From a virus (lineage: Duplodnaviria; Caudoviricetes): a DNA stretch of 64,000 nucleotides. Of the stretch, positions 96 through 64,000 are shown piece after piece. The translations under genes and the position numbers were made by a program. Where the stretch lies: the IMG/VR virus record IMGVR_UViG_3300002307_000018, positions 200,638-264,637 of that record; one strand, written 5' to 3'. The stretch's first letter is position 1; every line of letters starts with the position of its first letter. The notes under the pieces are model-generated. The model was given only the letters and a program-made list of their open reading frames with translations, was not told the DNA's origin and did no database searches.

Positions 96-124
96 ATTAT
101 AGACTGTTTTTGATTTAATGTCAA
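96..124 (-). promoter_or_regulatory. sigma70-type promoter
   Basis: TTGACA-N17-TATAAT on minus strand upstream of an ORF that runs off the left edge. Confidence 0.75.
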
Positions 125-6294: not shown

Positions 6295-6891
6295 ATGAAC
6301 TATAAAACTATTCACAACACTCTTTTACCGATTCTAAGCAACGGGCGCAAGACAGGAATATTTTGCAGCGGTGGCTTTGACAGTACACTGTTATTGTTCT
6401 TGTGTTTGAGAATTATCAAAGAAGAAAATCTCGATACTGACTTACAGGTGTTTACTGTACCACGACACGATGATAGTATTGTACACGCTCAACGTATTGT
6501 AGATTACATGAATAATATTTTTAAATACACTCTAAGCATACGTGCAGTGGGTGACCCTGATCTTGAACATGCAAAGCAAGTAAGTAGCGGTCTTAGACCG
6601 GCACTTGAATACTGTGAACAAATATTACTGGGTGATACTACCAACCCAGATGAAGTACCCAATGGTCCCGTTCGTGTTCGCAGTACAAACGATCTGTACA
6701 TACAGCCATTCATTGACTATACCAAACGTTCGACTGTTGCACTAGCGGCAGAGATTGGTTTCATCGACTGTCAAATACTCTCACACACTTGCACTGAAAG
6801 CAAGACCGTACGTTGTGGTCGTTGCTGGCAATGTCGTGAACGTGCTTGGGCGTTTGATGCTAACGATTATGTTGACGTTGGTTCAATGTAG
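6295..6891 (+). CDS. QueC-like PP-loop ATPase
   Basis: SGGFDS PP-loop and C-terminal SHTC...CGRCWQCRER zinc motif. Confidence 0.75.
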   Translation: MNYKTIHNTLLPILSNGRKTGIFCSGGFDSTLLLFLCLRIIKEENLDTDLQVFTVPRHDDSIVHAQRIVDYMNNIFKYTLSIRAVGDPDLEHAKQVSSGLRPALEYCEQILLGDTTNPDEVPNGPVRVRSTNDLYIQPFIDYTKRSTVALAAEIGFIDCQILSHTCTESKTVRCGRCWQCRERAWAFDANDYVDVGSM

Positions 6892-7549
6892 TCAGACGTT
6901 CAATCTCAGCAGCAGCCTCGTCTAACAGGTCTGCCAATCTGTCTGGCTCTCCATCTTGTACACTCTTGCGAGTAGGAATCTGACGGCGAATCTCAGCACG
7001 TTTTCTAAGTCTGTACACTAAACTTTGTTCTTCCAATGGAAGATCACTAGTCAACGGTTCAGGCGTAGGTTCATACTTATTTTTCTCGTCGTATCCATGT
7101 CTATTCGCACGTGCGTCATATAGCGCATGATGTTGTGGTAATTTAGTCTCAGCCCACCAATCGCTAATCCGTTGCTGATCTAAATCAGTCCAAATCAACT
7201 CTACGTCTATACGCATACGATCACGATGATCGTCACCCAGCGAGGACATTAGATCAAGAAATAAGTGCCAGTCGGTCGCATAGTCTACGCAAATGGTAAC
7301 ACCAGTATTTTGATACTCTTCTAACCAGAATGCCAACAGATACGCAATGTGTTGAGTGTTGCCCACTATAGACGTGTGCTGTTGACCCAGTAATGGTAAT
7401 ACGGTATCAACTACAAACTGACTACACGCCTCACGCCTGAATTGGGTAGACTCGGCGTAAAACTCACGACCGTTCTCGTCTACGATTCCAATACTAATCA
7501 TTTCGGGATTCGTAAAGTCCGTGAACTCGGTGTCAAGAAAGAGGCGCAT
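6860..7549 (-). CDS. DEDDh 3'-5' exoribonuclease with C-terminal helical extension
   Basis: LFLDTEFT, EFYAE, DYATDW, HHALYDA; extra ~65-aa C-terminal domain. Confidence 0.75.
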   Translation of the reverse strand: MRLFLDTEFTDFTNPEMISIGIVDENGREFYAESTQFRREACSQFVVDTVLPLLGQQHTSIVGNTQHIAYLLAFWLEEYQNTGVTICVDYATDWHLFLDLMSSLGDDHRDRMRIDVELIWTDLDQQRISDWWAETKLPQHHALYDARANRHGYDEKNKYEPTPEPLTSDLPLEEQSLVYRLRKRAEIRRQIPTRKSVQDGEPDRLADLLDEAAAEIERLTTLNQRQHNR

Positions 7550-24558: not shown

Positions 24559-24634
24559 TGGTTGCGACGTGACGGAATCGAACCGCCCCCTGTGGCTTAT
24601 GAGACCACCGTGCTTACCTACACACTCACCCGCA
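24559..24634 (-). tRNA. tRNA-Met(CAT), third CAT tRNA
   Basis: GTGGT-CTCATAA-GCCAC; acceptor stem with a one-base bulge; CCA. Confidence 0.75.
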
Positions 24635-24651
24635 ATTGTTACTATACTGAC

Positions 24652-24680
24652 ACTATAACACACACAGTATTTAGTGTCAA
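24652..24680 (-). promoter_or_regulatory. sigma70-type promoter
   Basis: TTGACA-N17-TATAGT upstream of tRNA-Met. Confidence 0.7.
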
Positions 24681-24915: not shown

Positions 24916-24990
24916 TGGTACCCCCGACAAGAATCGAACTTGTAATAAAGGCTTATCAAGCCTCCGGTATAACCGTTTACCTACAGGGGT
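24916..24990 (-). tRNA. tRNA-Ile(GAT)
   Basis: GAGGC-TTGATAA-GCCTT; CCA. Confidence 0.9.
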
Positions 24991-24997
24991 GTATTTT

Positions 24998-25072
24998 CAA
25001 TTTATTGAGTACACTACTCGCCCTAATCCCCTAAGCGGGGAGGTACGCTTAGACCAATGTACTCAATAAATT
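24998..25072 (-). ncRNA. conserved-stem ncRNA, copy J
   Basis: CAATTTATTGAGTACATT...AGTGTACTCAATAAATTG. Confidence 0.6.
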
Positions 25073-25204
25073 GTAGTGGCTGTCCCACTACTTGTCTCTT
25101 TTACTAACACGGTTACCGCCCGTGTATTCATCCAGAACCCCGCCCATTTAGTGTTTGTTTATAGTGATTCACACGGCTCTCGTTGCCTACATTCACTTAC
25201 TGCT

Positions 25205-25239
25205 AAAAACAAAAAACCCTAGATTTCTGGTCTAGGGTT
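25205..25239 (-). terminator. intrinsic terminator of putative attenuator
   Basis: AACCCTAGA-CCAGAAA-TCTAGGGTT followed by TTTTGTTTTT. Confidence 0.85.
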
Positions 25240-25291
25240 CTGAGAATTTTATTTTGTATGCTTACTATTACATACAATTTCCCTGAACCCT
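25234..25291 (-). promoter_or_regulatory. putative antiterminator hairpin
   Basis: AGGGTTC/GAACCCT, GGGAA/TTCTC and TTGTATG/CATACAA nested stems with loop TAATAGTAAG; shares GAACCCT with the terminator. Confidence 0.7.
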
Positions 25292-25426
25292 GAACGCATC
25301 AATACGACCATTTGAGTGTGTCGGCATATTGCGTCCCTGTTTGCTAAACTCGGGCCAATATGCTTCCGCTGTGGCGTTTGACGCTACATAGACGGAACTC
25401 AAGAGGTTTAAAAGTTTAGTTTTCAT
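25268..25426 (-). CDS. putative leader peptide (52 aa)
   Basis: MKTKLLNLLSSVYVASNATAEAYWPEFSKQGRNMPTHSNGRIDAFRVQGNCM, then TAA TAG TAA; ATG 12 nt below a -10 box. Confidence 0.6.
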   Translation of the reverse strand: MKTKLLNLLSSVYVASNATAEAYWPEFSKQGRNMPTHSNGRIDAFRVQGNCM

Positions 25427-25438
25427 GTTTAAGTTAGT

Positions 25439-25467
25439 ATTATAATACAGCAGTGAATATTAGTCAA
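25439..25467 (-). promoter_or_regulatory. sigma70-type promoter heading the tRNA array
   Basis: TTGACT-N17-TATAAT. Confidence 0.82.
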
Positions 25468-25789
25468 GGACTATTTTCAATTTCTGTATAGTTATTTATC
25501 CATTTCGTAAAAAAGTACTATATAATAGCGATTTTTTACAGTTTACTCTATATTGAGAAAGTATTTAGCTTCCTGTACTGCGTCATAATAATTTTTACTG
25601 CTTAATCTTTCGTAATTTCTACGGCAATATAAGTCTCCACGTGGCCACCACAATAACACAAAGTCACTGTGATCATCACGTTCAACTGTCCAAGAGATAG
25701 CTTGCATCATCGCATATAACTGTTAATGCAGATAATGGCAATGCCCACTGCTAGAACTATTAAGTCAATAAAGCCAAAGTACATCCAGA

Positions 25790-59588: not shown

Positions 59589-59617
59589 ATTATACAACAA
59601 TAATGTATCATTGTCAA
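59589..59617 (-). promoter_or_regulatory. sigma70-type promoter
   Basis: TTGACA-N17-TATAAT just above the exonuclease start. Confidence 0.75.
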
Positions 59618-62912: not shown

Positions 62913-64000
62913 TTATTTCTGGCTCTTGATCTGGCTCAGCATTGCGTTTAGTGCAGTTGATTGTACGTTTGCCACAACTTTCTTTTGTGGGATAAATTCG
63001 TCTTCGTCGTCTACTACATTGGTCACCGAACTACTGGTCTTGATTCTACTCAGCAGAGTAGATGCACTTTGACTTGTAGCTGTGTATCCTGTACTGTCTC
63101 CATCGTCAAAGATACGCAGGGTCTCAACGTTGAACGATAAATCAATCTTCTGACCCACACCTGACGAACTACGAGTCTTCATCAATTGAATCTGATACTG
63201 ACCACGCTCACGCATTGAGCGACTGGTAAAGATACCAAACACGTTGTCGGCTGTATTGATCTTTGAAATACCACCAGAGATATGTGAGTGATCAAACTCA
63301 ACTTCTTCAACCGCACTACGATTCAACTGTGATGCTGTGACAAACAGTACATTCAGTTCTTTTGCTAAATTGCGAAGTTCTTCTGACACGTACTTGTCTT
63401 TGATAAACAAGTCTGAGGGTGATACCTTGGTCGATACTGGCATTAACAAGTCAAGATAGTCAATGCACAAGAAGTCAACCTTGATACCCTTTTCCATTTG
63501 TAGTGTCTTGATGTACGAGCGTATGTCATTGACTGTGCTTTGTGCTGGCATATACTTGATGTAAAACTTACCAGACTTCTTAGCACTCATCTTGACCTTG
63601 AGTTCAACATCGTCAATGTTCTTGAACACATCACGTGTTGCAACATCAGTGACCATTGAGTCAATACGCCATGCAGTCAATTGCTCTGAAAGTTCTAGTG
63701 TGACATACACACCATTCAGACCCATTTGCATCCAGTTGGCTGCCAAGTTCTGCATGAATAATGACTTACCACTACCTGATCCTCCTGCGAAGATTTGAAG
63801 TTCTCCGCGATTGAAACCACCATACAGCTTATTATCAAGACAGGGCCAACCTGTTGAAATTTGACCGTTGTTGTTTCTGATTGCGTTCAGTCGTGCCTTG
63901 GGATCAGCAAAGTAATCTGTACCCATGTCTTTTGTCAATGAAATTTGCACTGCATCTTTGATCAGCTTTTCGACTGGATCATAGTTTCCCTTTTCAAGCA
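62913..64000 (-). CDS. replicative DNA helicase, DnaB/gp41-like (5' truncated by window)
   Basis: AGGSGSGKS Walker A, TLELSE, IDYLDL, TASQLNR, MKTRSS; frame open to the window edge. Confidence 0.92.
   Translation of the reverse strand, partial: LEKGNYDPVEKLIKDAVQISLTKDMGTDYFADPKARLNAIRNNNGQISTGWPCLDNKLYGGFNRGELQIFAGGSGSGKSLFMQNLAANWMQMGLNGVYVTLELSEQLTAWRIDSMVTDVATRDVFKNIDDVELKVKMSAKKSGKFYIKYMPAQSTVNDIRSYIKTLQMEKGIKVDFLCIDYLDLLMPVSTKVSPSDLFIKDKYVSEELRNLAKELNVLFVTASQLNRSAVEEVEFDHSHISGGISKINTADNVFGIFTSRSMRERGQYQIQLMKTRSSSGVGQKIDLSFNVETLRIFDDGDSTGYTATSQSASTLLSRIKTSSSVTNVVDDEDEFIPQKKVVANVQSTALNAMLSQIKSQK

Follow-up and report, generated by a model that had tools for sequence, protein, structure and literature searches.

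A candidate ribosome-mediated transcription attenuator preceding the tRNA genes of a freshwater jumbo phage

The stretch of DNA analysed here, 64,000 nucleotides (nt) long and referred to throughout as the window, comprises bases 200638-264637 of a 264.6-kb viral contig in IMG/VR (record IMGVR_UViG_3300002307_000018), which belongs to a freshwater jumbo phage and is estimated by CheckV to be 74% complete. ARAGORN predicts 31 transfer RNA (tRNA) genes in the window, all of them on the minus strand between positions 2358 and 24990, and jointly serving all 20 amino acids. Directly upstream of the first of these in the sense of transcription, tRNA-Ile and then tRNA-Ala, lies a self-contained element of ~260 nt, driven by a sigma-70 consensus promoter, which we describe as a candidate transcription attenuator of the leader-peptide type. 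Its parts, in the order of transcription, are as follows.

25439..25467, minus strand: sigma-70-type promoter, TTGACT-17-TATAAT, with 11/12 matches to the consensus; kept in all relatives
25268..25426, minus strand: leader open reading frame (ORF) of 52 codons and a stop; open in 7 variants
25292..25396, minus strand: structured 5' domain with hairpin P1a (~25396..25362) and helix P2 (~25337..25292), as found by RNAalifold
25234..25291, minus strand: antiterminator, a three-helix nested hairpin with UAA UAG UAA in its inner loop (25270..25261), as found by folding and in relatives
25203..25241, minus strand: intrinsic terminator with an 11-base-pair stem, a 7-nt loop and a U tract, its 5' arm sharing 7 nt with the 3' arm of the antiterminator

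Comparisons were made with relatives from metagenomes. Full DNA is available for the contigs L003/L004, L005/L006, L008 and L009, which with the window give five full sequences from related freshwater phages; a fifth contig, L007, came from a profile scan of metagenomes and is truncated inside the leader. Protein look-ups gave six close leader peptides, four of them with contigs. The L007 peptide counts as the seventh of the leader variants considered below, and one other, P0004 (sample 3300059473), is known from its peptide alone. When 1.8 and 5.8 billion proteins were searched with profiles, only the six close leader peptides were recovered; two large repeat proteins from protein profile searches, P0005 and P0006, were discarded as spurious, low-complexity matches. 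The exact-pattern scan of metagenomes had no match and the profile scan yielded only L007, while in IMG/VR neither protein-pattern nor exact-DNA scans matched the leader, the switch or the RNA downstream of it. Among GenBank phages, megablast, blastn and tblastn gave tRNA-level or chance matches only, and no relatives. A distant relative, L002/G001, identified via a 198-amino-acid (aa) neighbour gene, holds no leader homologue in its 131-kb fragment.

Two folds compete for the end of the leader transcript. The antiterminator is built from three helices (AGGGUUC/GAACCCU, GGGAA/UUCUC and UUGUAUG/CAUACAA) nested around a 10-nt inner loop, UAAUAGUAAG (UAA UAG UAA G), which holds three in-frame stops. 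The terminator (AGAACCCUAGA-CCAGAAA-UCUAGGGUUUU at 25241..25213, followed by the U tract UUUUUUGUUUUU) also draws on GAACCCU, and because this segment is common to both structures, hairpin and terminator are mutually exclusive. A first-pass annotation of this DNA, made from its letters alone, had proposed just such a nested hairpin with a triple-stop loop and a terminator sharing GAACCCU, and all of these components are present on the minus strand. The hairpin folds at -20.2 kcal/mol, compared with -5.8 +/- 2.3 for shuffled sequences (z = -6.3; 0/1000 shuffles as good), and is preferred over the terminator in a local fold of 116 nt. Across the five full sequences the antiterminator ranges from -21.0 to -25.7 kcal/mol and the terminator from -20.4 to -25.6, the gap amounting to 0.1-1.6 in each. 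The antiterminator state is slightly favoured in all five, and it is the fold of the nascent RNA until the 3' arm of the terminator emerges. Folding, which the same annotation had suggested as a check, thus recovers both states, near-isoenergetic in the window and in its four relatives. When a ribosome is represented as a mask from -15 to +12 around the stop, the terminator fold results in three of the five sequences, and the pairing modelled for the remaining two would need to span the ribosome.

The antiterminator is conserved as a fold. Standard pairs occupy 98.9% of its cells in the five sequences, and variable columns are concentrated outside the helices (2/53 stem columns versus 19/32 unpaired ones, Fisher p = 1e-8), one of the two stem changes turning a G-U pair into A-U. 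A search for covariation in related genomes, also suggested at the outset, was answered in part: the stems are kept, but no pair has changed on both sides. Support for the helices comes instead from invariant stems beside loops that drift between 10 and 15 nt.

The frame that precedes these folds was correctly described as a near-leaderless ORF of 52 codons that draws on 38 distinct sense codons and includes all 20 amino acids. None of the seven variants interrupts it; the other two frames contain 3-6 stops each, and just 3-4% of composition-matched shuffles have an open frame. The three indels within the ORF measure 9, 9 and 12 nt, and those in the loops behind it 5, 1 and 2 nt. In each of the five full sequences, with inner loops of 10-15 nt, the first in-frame stop falls within the inner loop, 21-27 nt past the start of AGGGUUC and 29-30 nt ahead of GAACCCU.

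The encoded peptide is far less constant than the frame. Variable columns are distributed over codon positions 1, 2 and 3 as 13/14/15, with no third-position bias, and the ratio of nonsynonymous to synonymous divergence (dN/dS) in the leader is 0.4-1.5; in the adjacent 55-aa gene dN/dS is mostly 0.2-0.4. Synonymous divergence (dS) in that gene is 0.35-1.2 between non-sister contigs, and 0.08-0.39 in the leader over the same pairs, the near-identical window/L007 pair excluded. The nucleotides of the leader are therefore 3-6 times more constrained than adjacent silent sites. In P0004 the C-terminus, SGFRESVC, corresponds to a +1-frame reading of the window nucleotides (SGFREIVC); judged from its peptide, this variant appears to read its last codons in another frame over the same nucleotides, and its end is still at the inner hairpin. 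Neither Pfam nor PHROGs holds a family for the leader peptide or its neighbours. Conservation of the leader ORF in relatives, which the first-pass annotation had proposed to look for, thus extends to the ORF and its open frame in seven variants and leaves out the sequence of the peptide. The combination of an open frame, a fixed end and a free peptide is what would be expected of a regulatory leader ORF, and argues against a functional small protein.

With somewhat more confidence than doubt, we interpret the element as a ribosome-mediated attenuator of the leader-peptide type heading the phage tRNA array, such that transcription probably proceeds into the tRNA genes only if translation of this short frame is left incomplete. 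Under the mechanism we propose, host RNA polymerase would start at the promoter (25467..25439) and produce a nascent RNA bearing the nearly leaderless 52-codon frame. Provided that this frame is translated, the position of the ribosome would decide between the two folds. A ribosome at the stop in the inner loop would cover or unwind AGGGUUC, whereupon GAACCCU would be freed, the terminator could form and transcription would end at ~25213. Were no ribosome to arrive in time, whether because initiation is slow, because a ribosome stalls before about codon 40 or because translation is blocked in general, the three-helix antiterminator would form first and hold GAACCCU, permitting read-through into a structured RNA, a stalk RNA, tRNA-Ile and tRNA-Ala. 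The signal would then be reduced translational capacity. The geometry of trp/his-type attenuators, attributed to this locus in the first pass, is matched by the short ORF, the terminator, the exclusive antiterminator and the placement of the stop; a cluster of regulatory codons is missing.

The transcripts which such read-through would reach, and the site at which the unit ends, are listed below.

25073..25202, minus strand: conserved structured RNA directly behind the terminator, the first to be reached by read-through; near-invariant in relatives
24998..25072, minus strand: stalk RNA, with a conserved closing helix and an interior cargo that differs among relatives
24916..24990, minus strand: tRNA-Ile (GAU), the first tRNA of the array; at the same position in L003, L008 and L009
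24831..24905, minus strand: tRNA-Ala (UGC); kept in L003, L008 and L009
24652..24680, minus strand: next consensus promoter, with 11/12 matches and a TG extension; downstream limit of the read-through unit

The order of promoter, ORF, nested hairpin, terminator, conserved RNA of ~130 nt, stalk hairpin, tRNA-Ile and tRNA-Ala is shared by L003, L008 and L009, and L005 keeps the same order as far as the stalk. No consensus promoter lies between the terminator and tRNA-Ile, where the best match, at 9/12, is at chance level. The simplest route by which the structured RNA, the stalk and the two tRNAs could be transcribed is therefore through the terminator, and read-through into these tRNAs and non-coding RNAs, as first suggested, appears necessary. 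A promoter-like site at 25098..25070 was considered as a driver of tRNA-Ile and tRNA-Ala and rejected, as it has 9/12 matches, sits within a conserved RNA hairpin and would place the start of transcription inside the stalk helix. The internal promoter at 24652..24680 had been named as a possible limit to the regulated unit, and we agree that the unit ends there. The unit is consequently a short one, consisting of the structured RNA, the stalk RNA, tRNA-Ile and tRNA-Ala, and numerous other promoters serve the remaining array. A tRNA-like sequence with the anticodon CAU (24563-24633, minus strand) immediately follows the promoter at 24680..24652; the Rfam tRNA model gives it 34.6 bits, and ARAGORN does not call it.

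Equivalents of the structured RNA are found at L003 6236-6379, L008 5230-5376 and L009 3739-3879, and one hairpin in it carries three compensatory pairs (ACACGG/CCGUGU becoming UUACUG/CAGUAA in L008). This RNA of ~130 nt matches no Rfam family, whether the gathering threshold or E <= 10 is applied. It includes a 19-codon frame (MGGVLDEYTGGNRVSKRDK) that is open in the relatives and has no ribosome-binding site. The closing helix of the stalk likewise shows two compensatory pairs in L008, and its interior holds three unrelated types of cargo in the five sequences (one in the window and L009, one in L003 and L005, and one in L008 alone), a pattern which looks like the swapping of cargo within a fixed scaffold. 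In L003, a 183-aa ORF with its own consensus promoter is inserted between tRNA-Ile and tRNA-Ala (6586-7137). Its product has a histidine/asparagine-rich C-terminal motif and a match to PHROG 23051, of unknown function, and may represent a homing-endonuclease-like insertion.

Strong terminators on the minus strand are few: between positions 1 and 30000 of the window there are only two, that of the switch and one at ~144. The latter closes the tail of the array just before a promoter at 124..96, and the array (25 kb) is bracketed by the two. A near-identical copy of the switch terminator hairpin, with 3 mismatches, occurs in a 386-nt metatranscriptome contig (run X16) which matches the window at 25205-25240 only. 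There, the 5' half of a tRNA gene stands directly behind the terminator and the upstream sequence is different; the same terminator module thus adjoins a tRNA in another genomic context.

The sigma-70 promoter annotated at 25439..25467 was confirmed. Near-consensus promoters of this type number ~55 in the phage genome, the real ones scoring 11-12/12, and most of them belong to one of two classes of start. In one, a repeated leader of ~30 nt carries AAGGA (ATACACATACACTAGAGAAAAGGAAG...); in the other, the ATG lies exactly 6 nt past the -10 hexamer (10 promoters, five of them with ORFs of 49-242 aa). Examples are found at position 59617 of the window and at 63396, 68006, 195783 and 157243 of the genome. 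Promoters of the second class would yield leaderless mRNAs, which suggests that the phage uses them. The ATG of the leader ORF stands 12 nt past the -10 hexamer without a Shine-Dalgarno sequence, leaving a 5' leader of 1-6 nt (the 5' untranslated region being put at ~4 nt). This ATG does not vary among the sequences, and pairing around the start is lower than in the remaining RNA. Beyond the -35 hexamer lies a further conserved feature.

25470..25535, minus strand: conserved intergenic block upstream of the -35 hexamer; near-invariant in relatives, in which the adjacent 55-aa gene has strongly diverged

About 45 nt of this block (TATATAGTACTTTTTTACGAAATGGATAAATAACTATACAGAAA) are kept in all relatives, and it contains an inverted repeat composed of A and U only (GTAAAAAA...TTTTTTAC). 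Candidates for its identity are an UP element, an operator or a 3' structure of the upstream gene.

The leader RNA has a structure of its own. As a whole it folds with z = -4.8, and RNAalifold identifies three compensatory pairs in the 5' domain (U-A/U-G/C-G, G-C/A-U/G-U and A-U/G-C). Within the ORF it forms two conserved hairpins, P1a and P2, neither of which overlaps the antiterminator. The in-frame indels described above fall in loops of this consensus fold and are therefore neutral for structure as well as for frame. Rfam, consulted at the gathering threshold and at E <= 10, offers no riboswitch, T-box or leader family for the leader; the best non-tRNA match in it reaches 23 bits, against a gathering score of 54.

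A number of observations weigh against the attenuator as we propose it. There are just five full sequences, all close kin (82% mean column identity), and with the stems of antiterminator and terminator invariant, covariation neither proves nor disproves the helices. The 3' arm of the terminator has a toehold of 3-4 nt (AGA), and some ribosome-free termination could therefore occur. Tandem or enriched regulatory codons are absent, no residue being used more than 5 times, and the leader ATG, with its short leader and no Shine-Dalgarno sequence, falls outside both start classes of the phage. The leader is itself strongly structured with covarying pairs, as in an aptamer-like sensor, and neither a pause hairpin nor an anti-antiterminator is seen to overlap the antiterminator, which P2 abuts without competing with it. 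Transcript data are likewise of limited help. Metatranscriptome contigs from two libraries map to 25096-25246, 25143-25292 and 25238-25404, two of the three crossing the terminator, and are compatible with read-through transcripts. They do not amount to proof of transcription, being few, read-sized, unstranded, of low depth and from relatives, with DNA carry-over possible and with a mapping at 88% likeness that favours this conserved stretch over its diverged flanks.

The structured leader speaks for a ribosome-independent RNA switch, in which the 5' domain (P1, P1a and P2) would sense a ligand, a protein or an RNA (possibly a tRNA), or which would be purely kinetic; either would set the balance between antiterminator and terminator, the frame being secondary or incidental. 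We consider this possible but less likely than the attenuator. It would accommodate the fold of the leader and the three covarying pairs inside the ORF, a constraint on nucleotides far above that on amino acids, and the poor context of the start codon. Codon usage is also non-coding-like, with a mean ln relative synonymous codon usage of -0.08 that lies in the bottom 1% of gene windows and is typical of out-of-frame ones, and the indels of the ORF, sitting in loops, are as neutral for structure as they are for frame. However, a switch of this kind sits less well with a frame that is open in 7/7 variants, begins at an invariant ATG and has its stops clustered in the inner loop, or with three internal indels that are all multiples of three, for which the chance is ~1/27. 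Nor does the leader match any riboswitch, T-box or leader family in Rfam even at E <= 10, and in the absence of competition between P2 and the antiterminator no ligand-dependent alternative pairing is visible. A further reading would make the 52-residue peptide itself a functional small protein, perhaps a secreted or membrane peptide with a weak likeness to signal peptides, and the RNA folds incidental. The ORF is indeed kept in seven variants, with the conserved blocks YWPE, MPT and NGRIDA, but conservation in these blocks extends to all three codon positions, a sign that the nucleotides themselves are constrained. With no third-position excess (13/14/15), dN/dS values of up to 1.5, a C-terminus that is in another frame in P0004, no family in Pfam or PHROGs and homologues limited to six close relatives in the 1.8 and 5.8 billion proteins, we hold a functional peptide to be highly improbable.

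Promoter, short product and strong terminator already form a complete unit, and the locus could accordingly be a stand-alone small RNA or mini-gene of ~220 nt which ends at its own terminator, its hairpin serving stability or processing and the overlap of the two structures resulting in constitutive partial read-through. The terminator could in that case insulate the array from upstream early transcription, and the fold energies are close enough for a fixed mixture. For a plain terminator, though, an overlap of 7 nt with a more stable competitor would be costly, yet it is exact in five sequences while the loops drift, and the downstream RNAs, linked to the leader in three relatives, lack a consensus promoter of their own. 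A stand-alone unit consequently seems to us unlikely.

If ribosome-mediated attenuation does operate here, the leader could conceivably act as a complete codon sampler, in which the ribosome would stall, and the terminator give way, on the loss of almost any tRNA, as might follow attack by an anticodon nuclease of the host. The first-pass annotation had put forward such a general sensor of tRNA health, and we find it rather doubtful. The full set of 20 residues is present in 4% of 52-aa windows taken from long ORFs of this phage, with P = 0.005 for 38 or more distinct codons, in 9/271 small ORFs of 45-60 aa, and in 0.6% of open out-of-frame gene windows (P = 0.003 for the codons). Open shuffles with the base composition of the leader contain all 20 residues in 9% of cases, with P = 0.13 for 38 or more distinct codons, in agreement with the caveat of that annotation that this number only slightly exceeds chance. 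Codon diversity and the full set of residues in the window were thus set aside as evidence: they are outliers relative to genes and out-of-frame windows, because structured RNA has a balanced base composition, and not relative to composition-matched shuffles. Geometry weakens the sensor further. The sole Ile, Asp and Cys codons of the window are 42, 43 and 51, where a stalled ribosome would cover AGGGUUC; the outcome of stalling at these codons would not differ from that of normal termination, and these three amino acids could therefore not be sensed. What remains in its favour is that all seven variants keep all 20 residues, each with exactly one His, at four different positions. Permutation of residues within columns gives p = 0.008 (7 sequences) to 0.04 (5 sequences) for this retention, values whose significance is inflated by shared ancestry. 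The leader has 1 Ile and 5 Ala codons while the tRNAs of the unit are Ile and Ala only, so the unit is not mirrored, and the codons mirror at most the complete array with its tRNAs for all 20 amino acids. Should the sampler nevertheless prove real, it would constitute a general tRNA-integrity sensor deployed as a counter-defence, switching on phage tRNAs and the adjacent structured RNAs.

Phage tRNA arrays have been discussed both as aids to codon usage and as substitutes for host tRNAs cleaved by defence nucleases. If the attenuator we favour is borne out, the phage would measure the decoding capacity of its host and adjust its own supply of RNA, and the classic logic of attenuation would extend from amino-acid operons to genes for tRNAs and non-coding RNAs. 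The small size of the element, its self-containment and its sigma-70 promoter make it directly testable in reporters or in coupled in vitro systems. Our literature searches found no published description of such an element, nor a phage or tRNA-operon example of such an attenuator, in line with the remark in the first pass that no such phage element was known.

Several established systems nonetheless share parts of its design. In enterobacterial leader-peptide attenuators, a ribosome at the stop tips the balance to termination and one stalled upstream to read-through. Like the trpL, hisL, leuL, thrL, pheL and ilvL leaders, the element combines a short promoter-proximal frame with an intrinsic terminator, one strand of which also serves an antiterminator. 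Unlike the trpL class, it has no run of cognate codons and shows no 1:2 anti-antiterminator or pause hairpin overlapping the antiterminator; its start is nearly leaderless, its cargo consists of RNA genes rather than biosynthetic enzymes, and its setting is a phage. Given that an anti-antiterminator appears to be lacking, the untranslated state would correspond to read-through, and not to the super-attenuation of the trpL class. T-box riboswitches similarly tie a decision between terminator and antiterminator to the status of tRNA, but they need no ribosome, and the element has no Stem I, specifier, T-box bulge or Rfam match. In what would be sensed, the element resembles the bmrCD, vmlR, lmo0919, msrD and lmrC leaders (e.g. 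PMC8546547, PMC12421871), which respond to the general progress of ribosomes by means of a short upstream ORF and a terminator/antiterminator pair. Leaders of that type control resistance genes of the ABC-F and efflux kinds in Firmicutes and Actinobacteria in response to antibiotics, whereas the element described here heads a phage tRNA array.

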